Source: an uncultured Clostridia bacterium
Lineage (GTDB): Bacteria > Bacillota > Clostridia > Christensenellales > UBA1242
Direction of reading: 5' to 3'
DNA length: 64,000 nt
Assembly (NCBI GenBank): GCA_937896905.1
Contig: CALBOE010000006.1
Coordinates: 57,336-121,335 of the forward strand
This document shows positions 2,679 to 32,018 of this stretch, in pieces (the stretch's first letter is position 1; every line of letters begins with the position of its first letter). The position numbers and the translations under genes were made by a program. Below the pieces are notes generated by a model. It ran no database searches. It had not been told where the DNA came from and saw nothing but the letters and a program-made list of their open reading frames with translations.

Positions 2679-4634
2679 ATGGAATTTAGAAATTTTGAAT
2701 TAGTAAGTAAATATAAACCCACTGGCGACCAGCCCGAAGCCATAAATTCTTTGGTGGAAGGCATTAAAGATGGCTTAACTTCGCAAGTTTTAAAAGGGGT
2801 TACAGGAAGCGGAAAAACTTTCACAATGGCAAACATAATTGCCCAAGTTAACCGCCCTACTCTTGTGCTTGCGCACAATAAAACGCTTGCCGCTCAACTC
2901 TGCAACGAGTTTAGAGAATTTTTCCCTAACAACAGAGTTGAATTTTTTGTTTCGTATTACGATTACTATCAACCCGAAGCATACATAGTTTCTAGCGACA
3001 CATATATTGAAAAAGACATGAGCGTTAATGACGAAATAGATAAACTTCGCCACAGCGCCACAAGTAGTTTGTTAGAGAGAAGCGACACCATTGTCGTTGC
3101 GTCTGTTTCTTGCATATACGGTTTGGGTGGGCCAGAAGAATATTATAATTTGCACATTTCCTTGCGTGCTGGCGATAAACTTACCCGTGAAGAACTTATA
3201 AGCAAACTTGTTGCAATTCAATATCAGCGCAATGAAATAGATTTTGCCCGTTCCACATTCCGTGCAAGGGGTGATGTTGTAGACATATTCCCGGCAGATA
3301 GCAGCGAACGTGCTATAAGAGTTGAGTTTTTTGACGATACAATTGAACAAATTAGCGAATTTGAAGTTGTTACTGGAAAAGTTTTAAACAGATTACAACA
3401 CGCAGCCATATTCCCTGCCACACACTATGCGGTGGGAAGTGAAAAACTGCAACAAGCTTTAAAACAAATTAAAATTGATGCACAAGAACGGGAAGAATAT
3501 TTTAACGCACAAGGCAAATATATAGAAGCGCAACGCATTAGAGAACGCACCAACTACGACCTTGAAATGATGCAAGAAATGGGCTATTGCTCTGGCATTG
3601 AAAACTACTCCCGCTATTTTGACGGAAGAAGCCCTGGAATGCCACCCTACACCCTTTTAGACTATTTCCCAAATGGTTTCCTTTTGTTTGTGGACGAAAG
3701 CCACATAACAATACCGCAAGTGCGTGGAATGTATAATGGAGATAGAGCCAGAAAAACAAACCTTGTAGATTACGGGTTCCGTCTTCCTAGCGCTTTTGAT
3801 AATCGCCCACTAGATTTTGAAGAATTTAACCGACGACTAACTCAAACAATTTACGTTTCAGCAACACCTAATGATTATGAACTTAACCTTTCGGGCAACA
3901 CTGTTGAGCAAGTTATTCGCCCAACCTATTTGTTGGACCCTGAAATTGAAGTTCGCCCAAGCAGTGGCCAAGTTGACGATTTATATGACGAAATTAACAA
4001 ACAAACGGCCAAAAAAGGCAAAGTTTTAGTTACAACTTTAACCAAGAAAATGGCAGAAGATTTATGTGCATATCTAGGTGAAAATGGTGTTAGAGTTAAA
4101 TACTTGCACAGCGATATAGATACTTTGGAAAGGGTTAAAATTTTAAACGAACTTCGTGCCGACGAATTTGATGTGCTTGTTGGTATTAACCTGTTGCGTG
4201 AAGGATTAGACCTGCCAGAAGTTACACTTGTTGCCATATTAGATGCCGATAAAGAAGGTTTCTTGCGTTCTGCAACCTCCTTAATTCAAACAATCGGGCG
4301 TGCCGCACGTAACAGTGAAAGTAAAGTTATTATGTATGCCGACAACATAACAGATAGTATGAAAAAGGCAATAGACGAAACTAACCGCAGAAGAGAAATT
4401 CAACAAGCCTATAACACTGCCCATAACGTTAAACCTGTTACAGTTAAAAAAGCAATTGTGGATACGCTTAAAATTAGAATGGATAAAAAAGAAGAAAAAA
4501 TGAGCAAGGCAGATATTATTAAAAACATTGAACAAATGAAAGGTATGATGCAAACTGCAGCAAATCAGCTAGATTTTGAAACCGCCATTAAACTCCGTGA
4601 AGAAATTGCCAAACTTAAACGAAAACTGCGATAA
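2679..4634 (+). CDS. uvrB: Excinuclease ABC subunit B
   Basis: 651 aa with Walker A GVTGSGKT, helicase motifs, and the C-terminal UVR coiled coil ([17 protein letters not shown]). Confidence 0.97.
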
Positions 4635-4636
4635 AA

Positions 4637-4673
4637 AAACCGAGATTAAGGGCTAGTAATTTTGAAACTAGTG
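4637..4673. repeat. Left arm of the inverted repeat bounding the radical-SAM cassette
   Basis: aaaccgagattaagggctagtaattttgaaactagtg. Matches the reverse complement of 6140-6175 at about 31/37 positions; the outer 8 nt and inner 14 nt are perfect. Confidence 0.8.
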
Positions 4674-4674
4674 A

Positions 4675-4710
4675 AATCACTTTATTTATAAATAATAAAG
4701 TGATTTTTTT
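4675..4710 (+). terminator. Rho-independent terminator of uvrB, lying inside the cassette
   Basis: aatcactttatt / aataaagtgatt stem followed by a T7 run. Confidence 0.8.
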
Positions 4711-4727
4711 CTTATGCAATACTACTA

Positions 4728-4756
4728 TTGAAATATTTTACCAAATATGCTATAAT
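4728..4756 (+). promoter_or_regulatory. Sigma-A-type promoter of the radical-SAM gene
   Basis: TTGAAA (4728-4733), 17-nt spacer, TATAAT (4751-4756). GGAGAAAG RBS at 4763-4770. Confidence 0.7.
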
Positions 4757-4772
4757 ACTAGCGGAGAAAGTT

Positions 4773-5747
4773 ATGAAGATTAAAGACCTTTGTTTCGAAA
4801 TAATACAAAAATGTCCAAATAATTGTATGTTTTGTTCTTCCGAAAGCAATTTTGAAAAATGTAATATTGTTGATTTTGGAACTTTTAAAAATACAATAAA
4901 TCATTTTATATCTCTTGGTGGCATTAAAGAAATTTCTTTTAGTGGCGGAGAACCGATGTTGCACCCAAATATTTTTGATATGGTTAGATATTGTAGTGAT
5001 TTGGGTATAAAAACAACACTTTATACAAGTGGTATTGTATCAAGAACAGAACAATCACGAAGTGATAACATATATATTCAAAAAATCTTAAATCAACTTG
5101 GTAATTTTAGGGAAATATCTATTGAAGAATTTAATAAATTAGAAAGATGTGGATTGTCGAAAGTTGTATTTGATTTACAAGCAAGCGAAGTTGATGCGTA
5201 TAATGAACTAATGGGCACAAAAAATAATATGCCTTTGCTTTTAAAAACAATTCTTCATGCTTCTTATTTTTCTTTTGATAAGTCTATACATTTTATACCA
5301 AATAAAATAAACGTAAATCAAATAAAAGATGTATTGGAATTAACAGAACTTGCTGGCATTAGTGAGTTGAGAGTTTTAAAATTTGTGCCACAAGGTCGTG
5401 GGAAACAAAATCGAAAAGATTTACAATTAAGCAATGATGAACTACTTGCTTTTGTAAAATATGTAGAACAACTAACCAGTGATATTACAACAATAAAAAT
5501 AGGGATACCACTACTTAGCGAAAATCAACATATTTGCACGGCTGGTTACGATAAAGTTGTCATAAGATATGATGGACAGATATTGCCTTGTCCTGCATTT
5601 AAAGATATTGATTTAAAATCATTAGAACAAAAAGGTTTTAAATCTGTAAATATATTTCATAATTTGAAAGATTATCAAACTACCGAAAATTCTCATAACA
5701 CACCTTTATGTGAACAATTTGGTAGACATGAAGAAAAACAATTGTAG
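4773..5747 (+). CDS. Radical SAM enzyme with Cys-containing C-terminal (twitch/SPASM-like) extension, substrate unknown
   Basis: CPNNCMFC is a CX3CX2C cluster motif. GGEPMLHP SAM-binding motif. C-terminal CTAGY...DGQILPCPAF resembles an auxiliary-cluster region. ATG 4773 chosen over the track TTG at 4728, which coincides with the -35 box. Visibly more AT-rich than its neighbours. Confidence 0.85.
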   Translation: MKIKDLCFEIIQKCPNNCMFCSSESNFEKCNIVDFGTFKNTINHFISLGGIKEISFSGGEPMLHPNIFDMVRYCSDLGIKTTLYTSGIVSRTEQSRSDNIYIQKILNQLGNFREISIEEFNKLERCGLSKVVFDLQASEVDAYNELMGTKNNMPLLLKTILHASYFSFDKSIHFIPNKINVNQIKDVLELTELAGISELRVLKFVPQGRGKQNRKDLQLSNDELLAFVKYVEQLTSDITTIKIGIPLLSENQHICTAGYDKVVIRYDGQILPCPAFKDIDLKSLEQKGFKSVNIFHNLKDYQTTENSHNTPLCEQFGRHEEKQL

Positions 5748-5778
5748 TAAAATTACATATCTTAATATGGCACTTAGA

Positions 5779-5832
5779 CGTGTGCTTGTCATATACAAGT
5801 GTTCTCGCTTCGCTCGAACAGACAAGCACACG
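5779..5832. repeat. Long hairpin (12-bp perfect stem)
   Basis: cgtgtgcttgtc (5779-5790) pairs with gacaagcacacg (5821-5832). The loop contains a tcgcttcgctcga REP-like core. Confidence 0.7.
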
Positions 5833-5855
5833 ACTATAAACCAAATAAAGCAGAC

Positions 5856-5898
5856 AAAAAGCGAAAGTGTTGGTAAACATAACACACTTTCGCTTTTT
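5856..5898. terminator. Bidirectional rho-independent terminator downstream of the radical-SAM gene
   Basis: A5 run, gcgaaagtgt ... acactttcgc stem, T5 run. The stem can extend to about 16-20 bp. Confidence 0.75.
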
Positions 5899-5928
5899 GC
5901 TGTCTATATGTCGGCTAATTTATTCCAT

Positions 5929-6072
5929 GGTGTACTTGACAAGAGTCTCTGAAATGAGTTTTTCTTTTTTTACTAGTTAAGACAGAGAAACGATATTTGT
6001 GCTTATGGCTTTGCTTTTCCCGTTTCTCTGTCTTTTGATATTATGTTTTCATTTCTTCTCTTGTCAAGCACC
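5929..6072. repeat. Nested imperfect palindrome (~145 nt)
   Basis: Outer arms ggtgtacttgacaagag / ctcttgtcaagcacc. Middle block gaaatga / tcatttc. Inner 14-bp stem aagacagagaaacg / cgtttctctgtctt. Confidence 0.75.
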
Positions 6073-6095
6073 TTTCACGGCATAAAGTAGCCAAG

Positions 6096-6131
6096 AAAAA
6101 AGAGAACTAGATTTGATATTCTAATTCTCTT
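6096..6131 (-). terminator. Terminator of the 167-aa gene, lying inside the cassette
   Basis: On the minus strand: aagagaa ... ttctctt stem followed by a T-run. Confidence 0.65.
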
Positions 6132-6139
6132 AATTATTA

Positions 6140-6175
6140 CACTAGTTTCAAAAGTGCTAGACTAAACCTCGGTTT
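6140..6175. repeat. Right arm of the inverted repeat bounding the radical-SAM cassette
   Basis: Its reverse complement, aaaccgaggtttagtctagcacttttgaaactagtg, matches 4637-4673. It overlaps the last four codons and stop of the 167-aa gene. Confidence 0.8.
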
Positions 6176-6665
6176 CTTTTTCTTCCTTTCTTTTAAAAGT
6201 TATTGGTGAACCAATAACTTTAAAGCCATTTGTTGCCGCATATTCACCTAAAAAATATTCCAATTCTGCTTTTTTCTGTTCTTCTTGAATTAATTTAAAA
6301 TACTTAATATACTCTGCACCTATAACTTCACTATTAAATCTAACCCAATCTCTAGTGTCTTCTTTAGAGTAATAGCCATCAACATAAACCACAAAGTTTT
6401 TAAAAATATAGTTTTGGCCAGCAATGCACATTGTGTAGAACATATTGCCATCTTCATCTTTTCTTAATCTTAAACTCTTAATGCTTTTTTCGCCTGCCTT
6501 TGCCATTTGCATTTTATATTCTCTTTTTGCAAGCATTCTGGAAAGAATACCTTTCTTTTCAACTTCTGGCAAAACTTCTTGTTGGTAAGTTAACGTAGCA
6601 TTAACTCGTTTCCATCTTAAAAATTGATCCATATGTTGCTCATCAATTTCATAACCTATATACAT
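6162..6665 (-). CDS. Hypothetical protein (167 aa)
   Basis: Own TTGACA-16-TAAAAT promoter and AAGGAG RBS in 6666-6720. No motif recognised. Confidence 0.6.
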   Translation of the reverse strand: MYIGYEIDEQHMDQFLRWKRVNATLTYQQEVLPEVEKKGILSRMLAKREYKMQMAKAGEKSIKSLRLRKDEDGNMFYTMCIAGQNYIFKNFVVYVDGYYSKEDTRDWVRFNSEVIGAEYIKYFKLIQEEQKKAELEYFLGEYAATNGFKVIGSPITFKRKEEKETEV

Positions 6666-6728
6666 ACCTGCTCCTTAAAAGTGAAAACATTTTAGCACAT
6701 AATGCAAATTTGTCAATATGCCATCAAC

Positions 6729-6760
6729 AAAAAAAGAGTTAGAAATCTAACTCTTTTTTT
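6729..6760 (-). terminator. Terminator of the giant surface-protein gene
   Basis: aaaaaaagagttagaaatctaactcttttttt: a perfect hairpin flanked by A and T runs. Confidence 0.8.
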
Positions 6761-6762
6761 AA

Positions 6763-9700
6763 TTATTCAACGTCACCAGATTTAGCTTCGTCGTCGTTTT
6801 TGCTTTCTTCTTTTGCTTCTTCAACTTCAGCAACTTCTTCTTTAACAGTTTCTTCAACTTTTTCAACTTCAACTTCTTCAGTTTTGGTTTGTTTAGCTGC
6901 TTTAAATGTTTTGTTGCTTAATTTTTTACCTTTGCCGTTGCCACCTTTCTTTCCTGTGAAAGTGAAGAATAGGATTACGCCAGCAAGAATAACAAGAGAA
7001 ACAATAATTAGAACTACGCCAACAACAGTGTCGCTAACTTCTTTCGAACTGCCTTTGCTAATAACTTTGAATTTAAATTCCTTTACAGATTCATTTTGGT
7101 AACCATCTTTAGCTGTTATTTTTAGAATACAAGTTCCAGTTCCTTCAATGAAGAATTGGTGAGTTTCATCGCCTGGTTTAACAATTCCATCTTCACTTGT
7201 TAAGGTAACTTGTAAGTTTTCCCACAAAGTGTATAGATTTGTTGAATCTTCGCCACTGTCGTCTAAGTCGCTAAGGGTTAAACCTGTGTTATAAGTGTAA
7301 ACTTTTTTGCCATTGTTTGTAACAACAATTTCAACTTTTCTGCTACCAGATCTAACAATGTTAACTTTATATTCAAGTTTATCGCCAGTGTAGGTTATTT
7401 CTTGTTCTAAAACAGATTTAGCATCATTGTTTAAGGACATAATTGGTCCACGGTTATCTCCAACTTTAATTTCTAAAGTTTTTGTTAGTGGAACATCGCC
7501 ACAAGTTGCAGTGTACACAATTTTATAGGTACCAATATCTTCTGTTGTGTTAAATTGGTAAACTGTGTAGCCGTTAACAATAACTTCTTTAATGTCGTTC
7601 TCAGCTTTTAAATCTTTACCATTGAAGGTTGCCTTAACAGTAACGTCTGCTTTAATGTTGCCCTTGTGAGCGGTTAAATATGGTACTGTTACTGTTGAAT
7701 TTGTGCTTGCTTGTTTATAGTTATCCACATCAACGTCAGTATCCCATTTAAGTTCTGCATTTTCAATTTGAACTTTCCATGTTACTGGGTTAGATGTATT
7801 TTCGTTTCCAGCATAAGAACCCACAAAACGGAATGTGTAAGTTCCTGCTGAATAGAAGGTGTAAGAACCATCTGCATTTTGAACCCAATCTAAACCGTCA
7901 GCTTCAACAGTTGGATTTTTGGTTAGGTTTTGTTCACTGTAATCTTCTTTGGTTACAGGTGAGGTTAATTTAGCATCAAACGAAATTGTTGTTCCGTTGC
8001 TTCCTTTAATAATTCCACCATCATTATCGTCTTTAGAAACTTCTCCGTTATTAATAACTGTTGGAGTTACAGCCAAGTGTGGAGGAGTTGTATCTTTAAC
8101 ATTAAATGTGAAGTAAACATGAGTAGAATTGCCTGCATCGTCCATTGCTGTGTAAACAACATAATATGTGCCAACAGCTTTAGGAGTTATTGTTCCACCT
8201 GTGAATGATGTGTTAGAAACATATCCTTTGCCAGATGTTGAACGGAAGTTAATTGTTGCATTGCTTAGTGTTGCATCTGTTGGAAGAACGTAATATTTAA
8301 CGTCCCAACCAAGAGTGGTGTCTGCATCTGCAAATGAAATTTCTGGTAATGTAACAACAGATTCTTCTTCCCCGTTGTTACCATATAGTTTGTTAAGGTC
8401 AATTGTTTCTCCATTAACGAACGAACCGCCATTAATAATGGTTGGAATTGGAGCAGACGCATCTGTTAAGTCATTAATTTTTAAAGTTCTAACATCGGTT
8501 TTAAAGTTGTGTGCATCGTTAAGTGCCACTGCAACAACTGTTGCTGTGTCAATTTTTGCACGGCTTGCATCTAGTTCTGCTTTATTAAGTTCTGCATAAT
8601 TGTTAAGTTTTAAGTTGAAGGTTTTGCTATTTGCTTCGCTTGCTTCAACCATTTCAAAGCCTAGATATCTTGCTTCCATGTATGCTTTGAAAGCATCTAA
8701 GTCTAAGGCATTACCCACGCCATAGAAAGCACAAACATTGTGTTTAGAAGCTGCAATAGCTGCCGAGATGTCTGCTTCTAAAGTTGTTGCCGCATCTTTA
8801 GCTTTGTAGTAATAGAACATAGCATTTTTCAATCTATCGTCAGTTTCGTCTGAACTTGTAATGCTAATAGCCATTGAACCATCACTATCAATAGTTGCGT
8901 TGTTGTTTAGTTTGGTAAACTCAACTGTTGGTTTTGCACTTGTTGCGCTAACTTTATCGGTTGAAAGCACTTCAAGTTTATATCTGGTTGTGCCAGATTC
9001 GTAAAGGTAAGAAGTTTGTTTGCTAATTGTGTTAGAAACAACTTGATAGTACAACACATATTCGCCAGCATATTTGCTTCCGTCTTCAACGTTTTCTGCA
9101 AATTGGAAACGAACTGCTTTGTTAATTTTACCAATGTTTGCATCGGCAGAATAGTTGTAACCGTCTTCACCTTCTGCAACAGGAACTAAATTTGTATCTT
9201 CTAATTTGAGGTTATCTACATAGAACATTTTGTTGTCGCTAACTCTTCTTAACATACGAACAAAAGTAAATTCTTTAAATTCGCTAACCTTGTCTTCTGC
9301 ATAAACTGCTGGAAGATATAGTTCTGTGTAGCCGTATTCTTTTCTTAAATCTACAGCTGCATTTGTGTTAACATCGCCAACAACAGCTTTAACTGCTTGT
9401 GCGTCTGTGTCGGTTGTTAGTACATAGTCGTAAGCAATTTTAATTGATGGCTTAGAACTATCTGTAACAGTAAAGTTTTTAGGTGTTACTTCAATAGCTT
9501 TTCTTGTGCCATAAGCTGTTTTAACATTGTATTTAATTGTAACTTTACCAACAAGGTCGGCATAACTTTGAACGTTAAATGCTTCTTTTGTCATATCAAA
9601 AGTGTAGCAGTTGTTTTGCAAAGTTAAGGTTTTGTTACCAATTTTAATTTCAATGCTTTCAACGTTATGAGAAATGTTTTTGCCATAAGTGTCGTTTAAG

Positions 9701-10632
9701 GTTAATTTTGGAAGAGTAATGTCCTTATCGCCCAACTCGAATGACTTAATTGCTGGGGTTGTGTAAGTGATATCGTCTTCTTCTGGAGTTTCATAATCGT
9801 TTGCAGATTTAACAACAATTTTAAATGTTTTTGTTGGAGGGTTGCTGCCAAATTGATAAGTATATTTAACTGTGTAAATAGCTTCTTCTGTTGGATTAAT
9901 GCTATAAACCCCATTAGCTAGTGAAAGGTTGCTGTTTGCAGTTTCGGTTGTAATAATGCCACCATCTTTTCTAACTTCCATTTTAACGTCAACGCCAGTT
10001 TTAACATTGCCATTAGCATCGACAACTTTTGGTGTTGGAAGAACAATTGCACCTGAATCTTCTGCAACATATTCTGGAACAAGTTGGTTTAATTTGCCAA
10101 TGTATTTACCGGTTTCTGTTGGATCAATAGAAAAATCTAAGGAATATGAAACATTTTTAACAGTTACATTGTATGCATTAGAGCAGTAAATCTTGTGATT
10201 TGCTGCGTCTTCGATAATGTATAAAATGCTATATTCGCCTTCGTTAAGAGATTTAACTGAAATTTTGCCATTGTCGTTATATTCAAAATAGTTTGATACA
10301 TTTTCGTTAAGTTCGTCCAAAGCCACCTTGCTTATTGTGCCACTAACGCGATAGTCGTGCGCTTTATTAGCAGGGTCTAAAACACGAATTGTGTAGCTTT
10401 TAGCATCTTGCCATGTTGTTTCAAGCAATGGAATTTCGAAATTATCGCCTTTACCAACATCAATGGTTGCTTTTGGCATTTTCAATGAGTTAATTAACAC
10501 ATTGTAGCCAACTTGTGCGGTAATCATAGCAGCGTCGGCACTTAAAGATGGGCTAAAAGTGCAGGCAAAACTTAACACTGCGAATGCAACAAAGCACAAA
10601 ATAAATTTAAAATACTTTTTAATAACTTTCAT
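6763..10632 (-). CDS. Giant cell-surface protein with multiple Ig-like (HYR/DUF5011-type) repeats, signal peptide and C-terminal membrane anchor
   Basis: 1289 aa. N-terminal signal peptide (KKYFKFILCFVAFAVLSFA). Repeated 'GTYxVxYTAxDxAGNxxxxxFxVxVxDxxxP' signatures, e.g. GTYYVVYTAMDDAGNSTHVYFTFNVKDTTPP. C-terminal TM helix (VVGVVLIIVSLVILAGVILFFTF) plus an acidic/Lys-rich tail. Confidence 0.8.
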   Translation of the reverse strand: MKVIKKYFKFILCFVAFAVLSFACTFSPSLSADAAMITAQVGYNVLINSLKMPKATIDVGKGDNFEIPLLETTWQDAKSYTIRVLDPANKAHDYRVSGTISKVALDELNENVSNYFEYNDNGKISVKSLNEGEYSILYIIEDAANHKIYCSNAYNVTVKNVSYSLDFSIDPTETGKYIGKLNQLVPEYVAEDSGAIVLPTPKVVDANGNVKTGVDVKMEVRKDGGIITTETANSNLSLANGVYSINPTEEAIYTVKYTYQFGSNPPTKTFKIVVKSANDYETPEEDDITYTTPAIKSFELGDKDITLPKLTLNDTYGKNISHNVESIEIKIGNKTLTLQNNCYTFDMTKEAFNVQSYADLVGKVTIKYNVKTAYGTRKAIEVTPKNFTVTDSSKPSIKIAYDYVLTTDTDAQAVKAVVGDVNTNAAVDLRKEYGYTELYLPAVYAEDKVSEFKEFTFVRMLRRVSDNKMFYVDNLKLEDTNLVPVAEGEDGYNYSADANIGKINKAVRFQFAENVEDGSKYAGEYVLYYQVVSNTISKQTSYLYESGTTRYKLEVLSTDKVSATSAKPTVEFTKLNNNATIDSDGSMAISITSSDETDDRLKNAMFYYYKAKDAATTLEADISAAIAASKHNVCAFYGVGNALDLDAFKAYMEARYLGFEMVEASEANSKTFNLKLNNYAELNKAELDASRAKIDTATVVAVALNDAHNFKTDVRTLKINDLTDASAPIPTIINGGSFVNGETIDLNKLYGNNGEEESVVTLPEISFADADTTLGWDVKYYVLPTDATLSNATINFRSTSGKGYVSNTSFTGGTITPKAVGTYYVVYTAMDDAGNSTHVYFTFNVKDTTPPHLAVTPTVINNGEVSKDDNDGGIIKGSNGTTISFDAKLTSPVTKEDYSEQNLTKNPTVEADGLDWVQNADGSYTFYSAGTYTFRFVGSYAGNENTSNPVTWKVQIENAELKWDTDVDVDNYKQASTNSTVTVPYLTAHKGNIKADVTVKATFNGKDLKAENDIKEVIVNGYTVYQFNTTEDIGTYKIVYTATCGDVPLTKTLEIKVGDNRGPIMSLNNDAKSVLEQEITYTGDKLEYKVNIVRSGSRKVEIVVTNNGKKVYTYNTGLTLSDLDDSGEDSTNLYTLWENLQVTLTSEDGIVKPGDETHQFFIEGTGTCILKITAKDGYQNESVKEFKFKVISKGSSKEVSDTVVGVVLIIVSLVILAGVILFFTFTGKKGGNGKGKKLSNKTFKAAKQTKTEEVEVEKVEETVKEEVAEVEEAKEESKNDDEAKSGDVE

Positions 10633-10850
10633 TCTTGTCTCCTATTAAATTAAGTCTAAAACATTGTAATAAATAACGAGAATTTTGTCAATCAAAATAC
10701 GCTGATATTTGAAAAAGTTTACATAAATAGTTTAAGTTTTTTTAATGGTTTTATTGAAAGAAAAAAAACTAGTTATGTCGAAAAAGAAAAACATAACTAA
10801 TTTTTTGTTTGTAGTTTTTAAAATAATGGCTTTTGAGTTATAAAAACAAC

Positions 10851-11378
10851 TTAAAGCAGATTCATTTGCGCTTCGGCATAATCTTTGGTAATAAAATTAA
10901 ATGCATCGCTGCTTGCAAGAAAATACTGTTTTTCCCTGTGTTTATTTAACTTGCTAAGGAAGTTACTGTCTAAAAGTTTAAATCGTTCCAACAAAATTTT
11001 GTTTAATGTGCCAAAATCTATGGATTTTGCATCTATAAACGCTTTTGCTGTTTCAATTGCCCATTCGTTTGGTTCAACTTCACCAGATTTATCAAATTCA
11101 CAAATAACATTCATTGCTTCTGGCGATGTGGTTAAACGGCTAACAACTTTAATCTTTTCCAAAACTGTGCGTGGAAGTTCTTTAACGGCATTTGCGTCCA
11201 TATAATAGAACTCGGCAAGTTTGTCCGCTTCGGCAAAAATGCTTTCTGCTCTTCTGGGGCGCCTTAAAATAACCCTATCGCCATAAACGCCTCTGCCACG
11301 TTTATATTCCACAATTTCATAGAAGTTGTTAATTAAAAAATCTAATTGCCCCCAATTTTGCTGATTTACTTTGGTCAT
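10851..11378 (-). CDS. Hypothetical protein (175 aa), downstream partner of the HicB-like gene
   Basis: Starts 11 nt after the HicB-like stop and has an AGAGG RBS. No motif recognised. Terminator hairpin at ~10761-10800. Confidence 0.6.
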   Translation of the reverse strand: MTKVNQQNWGQLDFLINNFYEIVEYKRGRGVYGDRVILRRPRRAESIFAEADKLAEFYYMDANAVKELPRTVLEKIKVVSRLTTSPEAMNVICEFDKSGEVEPNEWAIETAKAFIDAKSIDFGTLNKILLERFKLLDSNFLSKLNKHREKQYFLASSDAFNFITKDYAEAQMNLL

Positions 11379-11389
11379 GGCAACACCTC

Positions 11390-11659
11390 TTATGCTAATG
11401 CGTCAACCAACAAAACAATGTGATTTCTGTTTGCCTTGTAAACAGTTTCAAAGTCGGTTGGGCTTTCAATTTCACAATCAAACTTAATTGCACAATCCAC
11501 CATAGCGCAAAGATATTCTTTTGCTTTTATGTAGGCATCAACAACAGTTTCACCTTCTGTAACAATTCCTAAATCCTGAATGGCAATAGTAAACCAACCT
11601 GTGTTGGTACCTTTTTCGTCGTCTTTAATAATAATTGCAGGATAAACTAAATTCTTCAT
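11390..11659 (-). CDS. HicB-like (UPF0150) antitoxin-fold protein lacking a DNA-binding domain
   Basis: 89 aa. The pattern YPAIIIKDDEKG...FTIAIQDLGIVTEGETVVDAYIKAKEYL resembles the HicB N-terminal domain consensus. Confidence 0.5.
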   Translation of the reverse strand: MKNLVYPAIIIKDDEKGTNTGWFTIAIQDLGIVTEGETVVDAYIKAKEYLCAMVDCAIKFDCEIESPTDFETVYKANRNHIVLLVDALA

Positions 11660-11776
11660 ATTCCCTCTTTTAGATATAATTAATCACTATTAGTTTATCA
11701 CAAAATTTTCATTAAGTAAAATAAATTTACACATTTTTTAAAAATGAAAAACTTCCGCCTAAACGGAAGTTTAAAA

Positions 11777-12094
11777 TTAAGCCATAAGCTCAGCGTCTTT
11801 ACCCATAACAGAGGCCTGCATTGCAAGTTCGTCTATGCCAACTTTAAGCATTTTGCTTCTTTTAGCCTTATTATTGGTTTTCTCTAGCATGCGGCCAAGC
11901 AATGAAGATATTTCGTTAACGTGGCCTCTAAATGTTTCGCAACCAGCCGATAATTGTTTAGGTGTTGTGCCCGAACGTTTAATTGAAGGAACTTGATAAA
12001 ACTTTCCATTTTGCGCATTTTTAACACGCGTTGTTCTCCACGCAATTAAGCCCATTGCAACTTCGGTGGCATTTGTTGTTTGAGTATTATTCAT
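11777..12094 (-). CDS. Hypothetical protein (105 aa)
   Basis: AAGGAGGA RBS and a TTTACA-17-TAATAT promoter upstream. Terminator at ~11746-11770. Confidence 0.55.
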   Translation of the reverse strand: MNNTQTTNATEVAMGLIAWRTTRVKNAQNGKFYQVPSIKRSGTTPKQLSAGCETFRGHVNEISSLLGRMLEKTNNKAKRSKMLKVGIDELAMQASVMGKDAELMA

Positions 12095-12296
12095 AAGTCC
12101 TCCTTATTTATATGTCCACATATTAACACAAAAAAATTAATTTGTAAATAGTTTTAAGGTAAATTTTAAAAATTAATTAAAAATTGTGTAGTTGCCTATA
12201 AAATAGATTTTTAAAGCATTTTTTAATTAATTTAATTTATATTTTTATTAACAAATGTGAGAAATAAAATTGTTTTGTATTTTTATTTATAATCAA

Positions 12297-12320
12297 ACAA
12301 AAAAAGCACATTGCTGTGCT
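12297..12320 (-). terminator. rpoC terminator
   Basis: On the minus strand: agcaca-gcaa-tgtgct hairpin followed by a T-run. Confidence 0.7.
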
Positions 12321-12330
12321 TAATTTGTTA

Positions 12331-15300
12331 TTATTCTTCGTCTAAATCTTCAAACTTAATGTTAAAGTCGGAGTTTGCAAACATTGCAGAATCCTCTTTA
12401 ACTTGCTTTGGAAGAATGTTTCTATACATTGGTGCGCCTGTTCCGGCTGGAATCATTTTACCAATGATAATATTTTCTTTTAATCCTTGAAGTTTATCTA
12501 CTTTACCCTTTAAGGCTGCTTCGGTTAACACGTTGCTAGATTCTTGGAAGGATGCAGCAGATAAGAAACTTTCTGTTGTTAAAGATGCTTTGGTTATACC
12601 TTGCAATTCACGTTTAACAGTTGCAGGAACACCGCCATCTTGAAGCACTTTTAAGTTTGCTTCTTCTGCAACTCGAATATCCACAATGTCTTGTGGAAGA
12701 AGACTTGTGTCGCCCGGATTTTCCACTTTAACTTTTCTTAACATTTGTTTAATGATAATTTCCAAGTGTTTAGCATTAATAGAAACTGCTTGAGATTTAT
12801 ACACTTCTAAAACTTCGTTAAGCAAATATTCTTGAACCGCCTTAACCCCCCTTGTTTTTAGAACGTCTTTTGGATTTAGTGGTCCTTCTGTTAATGCTGT
12901 TCCAGGGGTTACAACATCACCCGCCTTAACTTTAATTGTAGAGCCGAATGGAAGAATGTAGCTTTCTTCGGTTGTGCCTTTAACAACAACTTCAAAGCGT
13001 TTGTCTATTTGATTAATAGAAACTTTACCACCAATTTCTGTCATAACAGCAGCACCTTTAGGGTTACGTGCTTCGAAAATTTCTTCAACCCTTGGAAGAC
13101 CAGTGGTTATGTCGGCAGACGCAGTACCACCGCTGTGGAAAGTACGCAACACCAACTGTGTACCTGGTTCACCAATAGATTGAGCAGCAATAACACCAAC
13201 CGCTTCGCCAATGTGAACAATATCGTTAGTAGACATATCTCTACCATAACACTTAGAACAAACACCGGTTTTTGCCTTACAAGTTAACAAGCTTCTAATG
13301 TTAACTTTTTCAATGCCTGTTGCAATAATTTCTTTTGCAAGTTCATTGGTAATGAACACATCTGTTCCACAAATTTCTTTTTTGGTTTTAGGGTTAACAA
13401 CTGGGCTTGCTGTGAAACGTCCAACAATTCTGTTTTCCAATGTTTCAACAATGGTTCCATTAGATTTAATTGCTGTAACTTCAATACCTTTAATAGATTC
13501 GCCAAGATTTTCAAAGCAATCGTGTTCGGTAATGGTTACGTCTTGCGCAATATCAACCAATCTTCTAGTTAAGTAACCAGAGTCTGCTGTTTTAAGCGCA
13601 GTATCCATAAGTTGTTTACGAGAACCACGTGCAGCAGAATAGTATTCTAATGCAGATAAGCCACGGCGGAAGTTAGATTTAACTGGAACGTCAGAAATGT
13701 CGCCACTTGCTGCCGCCATGTTTCCTAGCATACCGCAAAGTTGTTTTAATGAATCGTCGCCACCACGAGCTTTTGATGTAATAATCATTTTTAAAGGATT
13801 AAATCTATCTAACTCTGCAGAGGTGCATTTCATAATTTTGTTGGTTGCTTGTTCCCAACTATCCATATTCTTACGGCGTTTATCGTCCTGACTTATGAAC
13901 CCTTGTTCATACAAGCTATCGGTTTGACGAACAAGTTTATCTGCTTCTTCAATAATTGCTTCACGTTCGTCTGCTTCTTTAAGGTCGAAAATAGAGAACG
14001 AAACACTTGCCAAAGTTGCATATTTATAACCCATGTTTTTGATGTTATCAATCATTGTAACAGTGGTGTTTGTTCCGTGTTTACGATAGCAAGTTTCAAT
14101 TAAGTTGCCGTAATAACCTTTTTTAACGTCGTCGTTAACTTCAAAAGTTAAAGCGTTTTCACGTTTGGTTCTATCAACAAAGCCCAAATCTTGTGGAATT
14201 ATGCTATTAAAGATTATTCTTCCCAAAGTTGTTTTTGTTCTGCCAACAATTGTTTCGCCTTCAAATTCAACTTCTCTTCTTAAATTGATTAATGCTTGCA
14301 AGCTTAATTCGCCATTTTCGTGTGCTAATTGAGCTTCTTCAACGCTACCAAAGGTCATTCCTTCTCCCTTAGCGCCTTCTCTAACAACGGTTAGATAGTA
14401 GTTACCAATAATCATATCTTGGCTTGGCACCATATTTGGCGCACCATCACTTGGTTTTAGCACGTTGTTAGAAGCTAGAAGCAACATTCTTGCTTCTGTT
14501 CTTGCTTCCACAGAAAGTGGAACGTGCATACTCATTTGGTCACCGTCGAAGTCGGCGTTAAAGCCGCCGCAGGCCAAAGGTGGTAGACGAATTGCCTTGC
14601 CTTCAACTAAAATAGGCTCAAATGCTTGCACAGACAATTTGTGAAGTGTTGGCGCACGGTTAAGTAGAACTGGGTGGCCTTGCACAACTTCACTAAGAAT
14701 ATCGTAAACAATAGGACGTTCCTGATCTATCATTCTGGTTGCTTTTTTAAGGTTGTTGGTTGCATTAAGTTCCAACAATCTTTTAATAATGAATGGGCGG
14801 AACAATTCCAAAGCCATCATTTTTGGCAAACCGCATTGATAAATTTTAAGTTCTGGGCCAACAACAATAACTGAACGGCCAGAATAGTCCACACGTTTAC
14901 CCAACAAGTTTTGACGGAAACGTCCGTGTTTACCCTTTAAACTTGCGGTTAAAGATTTTAAATCTCTTTGACGGCTTCCTTGCACCGCTCTGCCACGTTT
15001 ACCGTTATCGAACAATGCGTCAACCGCTTCTTGTAACATACGTTTTTCGTTTCTAACAATAATTTCTGGAGCACCAAGTTCCATTAACTTTTTCAAACGA
15101 TTATTACGGTTAATAACTCTGCGATACAAATCGTTCAAATCGCTTGCTGCAAATTTTCCGCCATCAATTTGCACCAATGGGCGTAAATCTGGTGGAATAA
15201 CAGGAACAACGTCTAAAATCATCCAACTTGGTTTATTTCCGCTTTTAATGAACGCTTCAATAACTTCCAATTTTTTGGTGGCTTTAAGTTTTCTTTGACC

Positions 15301-31092: not shown

Positions 31093-31686
31093 TTACATTT
31101 CTCGGCGGGAGGTTAAGGCTTTGGAAAGTGTTGCGGGGTCGGCGTATTCTAGTTCACTTCCCATGGCAACCCCTTGTGCAATTCTTGAAACTTTAACGCC
31201 AAGTGGTTTTAGCAGGTTAGCAATGTAAATTGCGGTGGCTTCCCCTTCAACGTCCGGGTTAGTGGCAACAATAACTTCTTTAATGTTCTCTTCACCTACT
31301 CTTGCAAGTAGCGAACGCAAATTAATGTCGTTTGGCCCCTTACCTTCTAGCGGATTTATAACTCCATGCAAAATGTGGTAAGTTCCATTAAATTCTCTAA
31401 CCTTTTCAAGCGCAATAACGTCCTTTGGCTCTTTAACAACACAAATAATTGGCTCTTTTTTAGGATTGGAACAAATGTCGCAAACTTCTTTATCTGTAAA
31501 ATTAGCGCACACTTTGCAATAGTGAATTGTTTGCTTTGCTTCTAGCATGCTTCCGGCAAATTCTTGAACTTCTTCGTCGCTCATTGTTAGCAAAAAATAG
31601 GCATATCTTTGTGCGGACTTTTTGCCCACACTAGGTAGCCTAGAAAATTCATTAACAAGACGTTCAAAACTGCTAATGTTGTTCAT
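31093..31686 (-). CDS. recR: Recombination protein RecR
   Basis: LPSVGKKSAQRYAYFLL helix-hairpin-helix, a C4 zinc finger (CKVC...CDIC), and a Toprim region. Confidence 0.95.
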   Translation of the reverse strand: MNNISSFERLVNEFSRLPSVGKKSAQRYAYFLLTMSDEEVQEFAGSMLEAKQTIHYCKVCANFTDKEVCDICSNPKKEPIICVVKEPKDVIALEKVREFNGTYHILHGVINPLEGKGPNDINLRSLLARVGEENIKEVIVATNPDVEGEATAIYIANLLKPLGVKVSRIAQGVAMGSELEYADPATLSKALTSRREM

Positions 31687-32018
31687 TACATTAATCCGCC
31701 CAAACCGCCCATTGGAGATTTTTCCTTAGAAAGTTCGTCCGCTTTTGCCATTGCGTCGTTAAACGCAACAACCAACAAATCTTCCAACATTTCAACATCA
31801 TCAGGGTCTACTGCATTTTTGTTAAGTTTAATGCTTTTTAATTCCTTTTTGCCAGACATTATAACGGTTACCATTTCACCGCCAGCTTTGCCCACAACTT
31901 CAGCTTCTTCCAATTCTTTTTGCGCTTTTTCCATTTGTTCTTGCATTTTGCGGGCTTGTTGCATAAGCGCATTCATATTCATTCCGCCACCAAAACCGCC
32001 AAAATTTCCGTATGCCAT
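31686..32018 (-). CDS. ybaB: Nucleoid-associated protein YbaB/EbfC
   Basis: 110 aa with the MQQARKMQEQMEKAQKELE pattern. Conserved dnaX-ybaB-recR order. Confidence 0.9.
   Translation of the reverse strand: MAYGNFGGFGGGMNMNALMQQARKMQEQMEKAQKELEEAEVVGKAGGEMVTVIMSGKKELKSIKLNKNAVDPDDVEMLEDLLVVAFNDAMAKADELSKEKSPMGGLGGLM

Follow-up and report, generated by a model that had tools for sequence, protein, structure and literature searches.

A gene cassette that splits a predicted terminator in an uncultured Clostridia bacterium: a probable non-autonomous mobile element of a large family with interchangeable cargo

We analysed a stretch of 64,000 nucleotides (nt) from an uncultured Clostridia bacterium (assembly GCA_937896905.1, contig CALBOE010000006.1, positions 57,336 to 121,335 of the forward strand; hereafter the window), in which a segment with a radical-SAM gene separates two convergent genes, uvrB and a gene for a protein of 167 amino acids (aa). 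We conclude that window positions 4650-6162 are very probably a 1.5 kb non-autonomous mobile gene cassette, one of a large family with interchangeable cargo that is moved in trans, and we put the probability of this reading at roughly 85%. A preliminary description of the segment, made from the window alone, had proposed either a non-autonomous cargo element mobilised in trans or an invertible segment. The first proposal is supported by a precise empty site, by the presence of the cassette at several sites and in several hosts, by a family of elements with the same arms, and by the absence of a mobility gene. All related sequences compared were metagenome contigs or metagenome-assembled genomes (MAGs).

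An empty site in a conspecific contig

The imperfect inverted repeat of the preliminary description is present: positions 4637-4673 match the reverse complement of 6140-6175 at 31 of 37 positions with one 1-nt gap, without any mismatch in the outer 8 nt (AAACCGAG / CTCGGTTT) or in the inner 14 nt (TTTTGAAACTAGTG). Neither arm motif was found a second time in the 64 kb window. A 14-mer with at most two mismatches is expected about twice by chance within the window, so that the repeat is statistically unremarkable there, and it is the comparison with other sequences that establishes its reality.

The decisive sequence is contig L146 (Logan SRR32406220; L numbers denote the contigs and loci compared), which was reached through the second member of the two-sequence cluster of the 167-aa protein. 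This conspecific contig lacks the segment and is 99.7% identical to the window on both sides, covering window positions 3192-4649 and 6159-14665. Its junction reads ...cgaaaactgcgaTAAaaaaaccgagatTAAacctcggtttctttttc..., with the terminator core given as gataaaaaaaccgagattaaacctcggtttcttttt, and runs from the uvrB stop through an A-tract, the stem half CCGAG, a 7-nt loop (ATTAAAC) and the stem half CTCGG to a T-tract. Judged by this order, the L146 junction is an intact predicted bidirectional intrinsic terminator that serves both convergent genes. In the window, 1513 bp (4650-6162) are inserted in the terminator loop, the total difference in length from L146 being 1516 bp. The trinucleotide TAA stands once in L146 and twice in the window (4647-4649 and 6163-6165), which identifies it as a target duplication, a feature that the preliminary description had not seen. 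Likewise, the outer 8 nt that had been counted as part of the repeat are really target DNA, one half of the old terminator stem on each side. What belongs to the element is the inner ~24 nt, a repeat whose core TTTTGAAACTAG is perfect over 12-14 nt and which occurs in the window and in ~55 arm pairs elsewhere.

The empty site excludes the possibility that the flanking palindromes were made by the element. Insertion after a complete terminator, in the style of class C group II introns, is excluded too, as the element stands between the two halves of the stem. Moreover, the empty site settles what the right arm contributes to the 167-aa gene, whose final codons and stop lie inside the terminator stem and loop. 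The arm had been credited with the last four codons and the stop; since the outer 8 nt are the old terminator stem, the codons come from the target, and the element supplies only the C of the stop, which changes from TAA in the empty site to TAG in the filled site and leaves the protein unchanged. The sole match of the 167-aa protein among 5.8 billion clustered proteins is its own two-sequence cluster, and by this comparison the gene is a presumptive lineage-restricted ORFan.

Inward-facing hairpin terminators had been described just inside both arms, and both are there (4674-4706 followed by a T-run, and 6131-6100 on the minus strand). With its terminator split and these two terminators brought in by the element, uvrB and the 167-aa gene would each still terminate, and the insertion would be near neutral; landing inside terminators and bringing replacements would thus account for the near harmlessness of such insertions to their neighbours.

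Copies of the cassette at other sites and in other hosts

The radical-SAM cassette occurs at about six sites besides that of the window, or about seven in all, at 84-99% identity. It lies downstream of ybaB-recR in L001/L002 (97% identity to the window cassette), convergent with clpC in L008 (90%), convergent with an alaS-like gene in L009/L010 (97.6%), convergent with a gene for a 159-aa protein in L011-L020 (a subfamily at 84%), and next to different flanks in L084 (98.8%, at a contig end) and L100 (87%). The recR/ybaB genes of L001 are only 68% identical to those of the window (31126-31989) compared to 97% for the cassette, which implies recent transfer of the cassette between distantly related hosts. 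The sequences immediately outside the arms differ from site to site and are again the halves of a palindrome, with an A-tract before and a T-tract after; examples are the pairs AAAAAAACAAGGA / TCCTTGTTTTTT, AAAAAAATACGGAA / TTCCGTATTTTTTT and AAAAAAAAGAAAAGG / CCTTTTCTTTTTTTT, and the site-specific stem halves include CCGAG, CAAGGA, TACGGAA and GAAAAGG. No inverted copy was found at any site, including the ten contigs with the L011-type insertion, in which the order of neighbouring genes is identical wherever flanks are present.

These comparisons bear on the view that the segment is an invertible phase-variation switch, or a fixed REP-like (repetitive extragenic palindrome) or terminator-associated repeat whose cargo is not mobile. 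Two inverted repeats of ~37 nt do bracket the segment, and on window statistics they are unremarkable. That view is effectively refuted, and we give it almost no credence, because the locus shows a precise empty site and hence presence/absence polymorphism, identical cassettes stand at different sites in divergent hosts, no copy is inverted at the sampled sites, no recombinase motif was found, and the arms always bound cargo or miniature units rather than being scattered at junctions in the window. The invertible segment of the preliminary description falls for the same reason, the lack of any inverted copy. Of the checks that the description had named, the search for a structural polymorphism at the locus gave the empty site in L146, and the idea that the arm is a common cargo-free REP was not borne out, paired arms being found around cargo or miniature units. 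A REP/BIME (bacterial interspersed mosaic element) palindrome was rejected on this ground and on the absence of another copy of the arm motif from the window.

Two further features of L001 were noted. Just beyond the cassette, the minus strand of L001:3008-3055 resembles a tRNA gene's 3' half (TGGTGCTCCCTGTAGGAATCGAACC...), and VWA-domain genes follow; ARAGORN finds no complete tRNA at this position, and the stretch may be what is left of the attachment site of another integrated element. L001:1003-1215 (minus strand), which lies between the cassette and recR, encodes a Cys/Gly-rich hydrophobic small protein of 70 aa that is absent from the window.

A family of elements with common arms and diverse cargo

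Species-representative genomes were scanned with a strict degenerate arm pattern, so that the counts below are lower bounds and biased by the pattern. At least 119 loci have arms, and several genomes matched on two or three contigs. The arm-bearing genomes are nearly all MAGs from gut or rumen, assigned to Clostridia, Christensenella, Candidatus Onthoplasma, Candidatus Caccovivens and similar (Christensenellales-like) groups. Among these loci are ~55 forward/reverse arm pairs, spaced 72 bp to 5.7 kb apart. The arms are of two types, A (nAAGGGCTA....TTTTGAAACTAG) and B (TTAGTCACTGCATTTTGAAACTAGTGTAATAA). The element itself begins GGGCTAG... at arm A and AGTCTAG... or GTCTAG... at arm B, the core TTTTGAAACTAG being common to both. 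An A arm (AAGG...) is paired with a B arm (TTAGTC...) in 45 of the 55 pairs. Searches of the arm-bearing loci by tblastx with the flanks gave no empty site.

The interiors hold one to four genes, and their ~85 open reading frames (ORFs) fall into ~67 unrelated clusters; the same cargo occurs in either orientation relative to the A-to-B direction. Among the cargoes are C5 DNA methyltransferases with NgoFVII-like, HNH or type II restriction enzymes, an Eco57I-type methylase, a trio of PD-(D/E)XK, WYL and DnaB_C proteins that matches a PADLOC candidate system, an ABC transporter pair, and enzymes of the SDR, GNAT, methyltransferase and 2-hydroxyacid dehydrogenase types. Others are nucleoside hydrolase, 5'-nucleotidase and HD proteins, EEP nucleases, an arginine-metabolism fusion protein and many proteins without a family. 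At the other extreme are miniature cargo-free units, in which a terminator hairpin is all that separates arm A from arm B and the cores lie ~72-79 bp apart. Such a unit directly adjoins arm A of a second element at L045:2316-2445 and L071:106-240, which implies that cassettes can form short head-to-tail arrays. In these tandems arm B abuts the next arm A across 3 nt that end in AA (TAA in L045, AAA in L071).

The radical-SAM gene is the only convincing ORF of the window element, in agreement with the preliminary description, which saw no mobility gene inside it. The same holds for the family as searched. Pfam searches with 50 representative cargo proteins gave no transposase or recombinase family. 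Motif searches of the at least 119 loci for serine recombinases and for IS110-type N-termini likewise gave no mobility gene, the sole serine-recombinase-like match being a truncated gene in L003, and clustering of the ORFs of at least 250 aa in these loci yielded no recurrent mobility gene. No cognate autonomous insertion sequence (IS) with matching ends was found among these loci or in plasmid, phage and viral collections. The cassette had no BLAST match in the phage, plasmid and viral collections; in viral contigs the strict arm pattern had none and a looser pattern gave six single-arm, chance-looking matches; and a 72-nt arm-B query against plasmids returned chance matches only.

Several observations concern the surroundings and assembly of family members. 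An identical composite element stands in two MAGs (L133:676-3234 and L137:1453-4010). The outer flanks of the L137 copy are mutually non-complementary (AAAAAAAACGCC vs GTCCATCTTTTTTTTT), a mismatch that suggests rearrangement through recombination between elements at different sites. In seven loci from different MAGs (including L030, L034, L083, L089 and L090), a protein family of ~283 aa is encoded beside the element, and the SDR cargo is sometimes the same; this recurrent neighbour could mark a hotspot or an old shared insertion. Finally, MAG contigs end or start in the ~400-nt module described below, or in an arm, at L043, L047-L050, L060, L062, L072, L099, L105, L122, L125, L131, L144 and L145, consistent with a multi-copy repeat that disrupts short-read assembly.

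Target geometry and route of movement

The targets have a common geometry. On both sides, A is present at 74-94% in positions -11 to -16, followed by ~8 variable nt and then the junction (64 A arms and 91 B arms). The junction dinucleotide was determined from 167 arms aligned on the core alone, with the outer part unconstrained. It consists of A/T in nearly all arms and is coupled, as AA or TT, to the arm type in 138 of the 167 (TT+AG in 84, AA+GG in 54), the cross types numbering 5, and the third position varies. Thus the family-wide invariant is AA on the A-to-B strand at both junctions, and TAA is its commonest extension; a fixed TAA duplication, as in the window, was given up for the family as a whole. 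Both arms contain a T-run, and its distance from AA equals that of the T/A-tracts in the targets. Of the 39 elements with flanks long enough to judge placement, 19 have a convergent pair of genes as neighbours and 11 adjoin the end of one gene while the second gene points away; in no case do both neighbours point away. The family sits at gene 3' ends, with a median of 21 nt between stop codon and element. Selection alone cannot put insertions exactly at the centre of a dyad, so that the mechanism itself must do the targeting.

An enzyme encoded elsewhere would move the element in trans. The route that we favour, and to which we give about an even chance, is excision to a circle and integration by a site-specific recombinase with a 2-nt core, of the serine or the IS110-type DEDD class. 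Excision would yield a circle with the joint armB-AA-armA (...CAAAAGTGCTAGACT AA GGGCTAGTAATTTTG...), which is imperfectly palindromic (AAAA-N10-AA-N10-TTTT). The targets of integration would be mimics of this joint, made up of an A-tract, a short palindrome, AA and a T-tract, which in practice are bidirectional terminators. As the A/T runs are equally far from AA in the joint and in the targets, bidirectional terminators would be natural mimics of the joint. A 2-nt-core recombinase is favoured because an asymmetric core fixes orientation and because arm B and arm A abut across a single core ending in AA. The identical asymmetric dinucleotide at both junctions, which sets the orientation, is what the 138 of 167 coupled arms and only 5 cross types display.

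Several points weigh against this reading. The mobilising enzyme was not found in the searched loci and collections, and an autonomous relative with diverged arms could have escaped a scan by the strict arm pattern. The flanks of L001 are a poor palindrome, the single imperfect case. Serine integrases normally need a specific attB sequence, and the inner 8 nt of the targets vary freely. How the element moves, beyond being mobile and moved in trans, is something that we infer. In addition, inverted repeats, a 2-3 bp duplication and miniature units free of cargo are just as much the classic marks that DDE transposition leaves, and insertion into hairpins has precedents among DDE elements: TnSha1 and IS1272 insert into staphylococcal terminators without sequence specificity, deleting part of the hairpin and making no duplication (PMC4923244, PMC5678879), and IS1397 and ISKpn1 insert into REP extragenic palindromes (PMC1525189).

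The element could accordingly be a non-autonomous derivative of a DDE IS, namely a mobile insertion cassette or a MITE (miniature inverted-repeat transposable element), for which a transposase acting in trans would recognise a hairpin or cruciform, cut its loop with a 2-3 bp stagger and move the element by cut-and-paste. Such an origin fits the inverted repeats at the ends, the short duplication, the existence of miniature forms without cargo and the presence of many copies in a genome, and mobile insertion cassettes are an established class. The strict coupling of an asymmetric AA to orientation is hard to square with a two-fold symmetric transpososome, no partner IS is present in the at least 119 loci, and the outcome is the opposite of that of IS1272, in which part of the hairpin is deleted and nothing is duplicated. 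We regard a DDE origin as possible but doubtful.

Single-stranded transposition, with an IS200/IS605- or RAYT-type HUH/Y1 enzyme and with terminator loops as accessible single-stranded targets, appears improbable. The ends of the elements are true inverted repeats of each other rather than subterminal hairpins on the same strand. Moreover, IS200/IS605 elements are not known to leave a duplicated core, whereas here a duplicated core is present at both junctions. No Y1 gene was seen in the loci, as tested indirectly through the Pfam searches with cargo. This route does agree with the variable sequence of the hairpin targets, with the element's own wealth of hairpins and with the flipping, in some copies, of two of its hairpin loops. 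In REP/RAYT systems a single-copy host enzyme is reported to be able to spread non-autonomous palindromic repeats (PMC3333891, PMC2817692).

The cargo gene and the structured module

The features of the cassette that we favour as a mobile element moved in trans are collected in Table 1, together with those of its flanks.

Table 1. Positions in the window of the cassette, its parts and the adjoining target DNA and genes
Feature	Position	Strand	Basis and remarks
uvrB, left flank	2679..4634	+	ORF list; stop TAA at 4632-4634; outside the element
Left half of predicted terminator, target DNA	4633..4646	.	L146; A-tract 4633-4639, stem CCGAG 4640-4644, loop AT 4645-4646
Left copy of duplicated TAA	4647..4649	.	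L146; family-invariant part AA at 4648-4649
Arm A, left terminal inverted repeat, GGGCTAGTAATTTTGAAACTAGTG	4650..4673	+	Kept in all cassette copies and in elements with other cargo
Inward terminator for uvrB	4674..4712	+	Perfect 13-bp stem 4674-4686 / 4694-4706 and T-run
Cargo promoter TTGAAA-17-TATAAT with upstream TG	4728..4756	+	Promoter scan, 11/12 matches
Radical-SAM cargo gene, 324 aa, partial SPASM/twitch domain	4773..5747	+	Pfam
~400-nt structured backbone module, next to arm B	5750..6139	.	Folding, conservation, alignment
Module hairpin H1	5779-5832		
Module hairpin H2, terminator-like	5855-5899		Flanking A- and T-runs
Module long hairpin H3	5912-6092		Encloses H3a, 5979-6034
Promoter-like site TTGACA-16-CATAAT	6067-6040	-	Near-consensus
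Module hairpin H4, inward terminator for the 167-aa gene	6100-6131	-	
Arm B, right terminal inverted repeat, reverse complement GTCTAGCACTTTTGAAACTAGTG	6140..6162	-	Comparison of copies
Right copy of duplicated TAA	6163..6165	.	L146
Right half of predicted terminator, target DNA	6166..6181	.	Loop AC, stem CTCGG 6168-6172, T-tract; encodes the last codons of the 167-aa gene
167-aa gene, right flank	6162..6665	-	Outside the element; adjoins the empty site in L146

For the radical-SAM gene, ATG 4773 is the most plausible start. The promoter noticed in the preliminary description lies upstream, at 4728-4756, and is kept with the ORF even in the repeat-less copies L003 and L005. By eye the gene had looked AT-rich, and measurement bears this out: its G+C content is 28.1%, against a window mean of 35.1 +/- 3.1%, and the ORF thus falls in the lowest 1.7% of equal-sized windows. 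The composition, which was to be computed as a check, is therefore deviant. The protein matches Pfam Radical_SAM at 8.8e-14, and its SPASM match is weak. The gene had been called an orphan; a protein search gave at least 586 homologues, so that this label does not hold. A metagenome scan with the protein gave at least 2 loci, and exact look-ups of the 324-aa and 167-aa proteins of the window returned no record.

No specific NCBIfam or PADLOC family fits the radical-SAM protein, which scores far under the curated thresholds, including those for PqqE, MoaA and prokaryotic viperin. Prokaryotic viperin was rejected as its identity, as the score with NCBIfam viperin_w_prok is 39.5 bits and the cut-off 180. 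The best PADLOC pVip match covers the N-terminal radical-SAM core only (residues 7-94), and a weaker one covers residues 8-236. The structure model has a pLDDT (predicted local distance difference test) of 90.6. Its nearest folds are SuiB, SkfB, BlsE, viperin and MoaA, which are about equally close (query TM-scores of 0.6-0.67). A CxxxCxxC cluster is present in the protein, and three further cysteines are invariant in its short C-terminal region, which is SPASM/twitch-like.

In L003/L004 (at 88%) and L005 (at 85%), more divergent copies of the gene stand without arms and have the promoter and ORF alone in common with the cassette. Their neighbours are a PLD/SHOCT pair, a serine recombinase in truncated form and a restriction-modification system of type I. 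The occurrence of arm-less copies in other contexts implies that the radical-SAM gene behaves as accessory cargo in its own right, and the company that it keeps hints at a possible role in defence. Near the copy in L003, positions 1872-2252 encode a truncated serine-recombinase N-terminus (MIKAVIYARYSSSSQ...). The same context has the PLD/SHOCT pair and an uncharacterised downstream ORF (KQHYIWRKYLRAW...), and it forms a variable region with defence-island-like genes.

The other large part of the cassette is the module of ~400 nt next to arm B. The strong hairpins that had been noticed downstream of the gene are confirmed by folding: compared to shuffled sequence, the z-scores of positions 5745-6165 are -10 (plus strand) and -12 (minus strand). 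The module is 80-92% identical in roughly 50-70 of the at least 119 loci, regardless of cargo, and an alignment of 45 copies (A1) has a mean column identity of 85% and keeps H1, H2, H3/H3a and H4. In the inner helix of H1, three consecutive pairs covary in Watson-Crick fashion (TA/GC, TA/CG/AT and CG/GC). The RNAalifold covariation term for the module is about zero, which is explained by the high conservation of the sequence. In this alignment H4 keeps its hairpin while the sequence of the stem changes between copies. At the other end of the element, an equivalent hairpin of different sequence likewise stands after arm A in other family members.

In some copies hairpin loops of the module are reverse-complemented: that of H1 in L066 (5503-5908) and L141 (6594-7000), at A1 columns 39-72, and that of H2 in L111 (5259-5670), at A1 columns 124-139. 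These flipped loops point to a probable flip-flop of palindromes, that is, to palindrome dynamics at the DNA level. Transcription of the module is conceivable as well. The -35 element of the minus-strand promoter-like site is invariant in the 45 copies, and a predicted RNA of ~180 nt could run on the minus strand from 6033 to ~5850, comprising H3a and a conserved single-stranded stretch and ending at H2; we offer it as a lead, not as a finding. Rfam gave only tRNAs at gathering score for the window and chance-level matches for 4550-6250, from which we conclude that the module belongs to no known RNA family and is neither a known group II intron nor a known ribozyme. We also considered that the module might encode a guide or bridge RNA pairing with the element's own ends, and rejected this, as none of the top mutual-information pairs links the module to the variable part of arm B.

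Significance

These results suggest that accessory genes, including restriction-modification genes, move between poorly known gut Clostridia as self-contained cassettes of 1-6 kb. The arms and the 400-nt module provide a simple signature for recently acquired genes in MAGs, and the cassette repeats probably account for some contig breaks. The radical-SAM family, with its confident structure model and its spread between hosts, is a candidate for functional study. The enzyme appears to read DNA shape and a 2-nt core; if this is true, it could serve as an insertion tool for predictable, benign sites.

In its general nature, the element is a relative of mobile insertion cassettes and MITEs that targets hairpins, and both ideas are already published. 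The combination of features was not found described in the literature searched, and the family is apparently undescribed. This new combination comprises A/B arms with an oriented AA, loss-free insertion at the loop centre of terminators of the A-tract/palindrome/T-tract type, replacement terminators, the 400-nt module, integron-like diversity of cargo across uncultured Clostridia, and no associated mobility gene. There is a real chance that the mobilising system itself is something newer. One such system, which we think unlikely though worth stating, would be a dispersed, integron-like exchange system: a single host recombinase with an AA core would insert cassettes into terminators recognised by their geometry, maybe with help from an RNA or DNA structure of the module, and would spread restriction-modification and accessory cargo across genera.

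Comparison with known systems

The closest likeness is to mobile insertion cassettes (MIC231 of Bacillus cereus, and the 'mic' elements of Xanthomonas and qnrD) and to MITEs. These too have terminal inverted repeats, no transposase, a short duplication, passenger genes and presumed mobilisation in trans, and their miniature cargo-free versions occur alongside cargo-bearing ones. The elements described here differ in that no cognate IS with matching ends was found, in their differentiated A and B arms coupled to an asymmetric AA, in their target at the centre of terminators, and in a single backbone that combines ~67 cargo families with the 400-nt module and built-in terminators.

TnSha1/TnSha2 and IS1272 (IS1182 family, staphylococci) are likewise cargo-carrying, IS-related Firmicutes elements that lie in terminator hairpins without primary-sequence specificity. 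They encode a DDE transposase, cut in the stem or at its foot and delete part or all of the hairpin, whereas the elements of our family split the hairpin at its loop, retain it fully, duplicate TAA/AA and carry no transposase. Insertion into extragenic palindromes is also common to IS1397/ISKpn1 (IS3 family) and IS621/ISPpu9/ISPpu10 (IS110 family). In elements of the IS110 type, donor and target have a 2-nt core in common, and the targets resemble the circle junction. All of these are autonomous and use one repeated target family each; by contrast, our elements have clear inverted repeats and cargo without a recombinase, and they occupy unrelated terminators that have only the A/T-tract geometry in common.

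Tn4451/Tn5397 and IS607 are serine-recombinase elements with a 2-nt crossover whose recombinase is self-encoded. With these elements our family has in common the identical junction dinucleotide, an asymmetric core that fixes orientation, a dyad-symmetric joint and targets that resemble the joint; it differs in that the searches of the elements and their surroundings gave neither a gene nor a motif of a serine recombinase.

Finally, integron cassettes and pdif modules (XerCD) are, like the present elements, small recombinase-less modules with diverse accessory and defence cargo, imperfect inverted repeats and head-to-tail joining across a short core. An integron gene cassette was nevertheless rejected for the window element, which has the ends AAGG.../...CTAA with the core TTTTGAAACTAG, its own promoter and no integrase nearby. 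The family lacks the attC core GTTRRRY, an intI/attI platform and an 11-6-11 dif-like site. Its members instead bring their own promoters and terminators, and they are dispersed singly at chromosomal terminators rather than gathered in one array.

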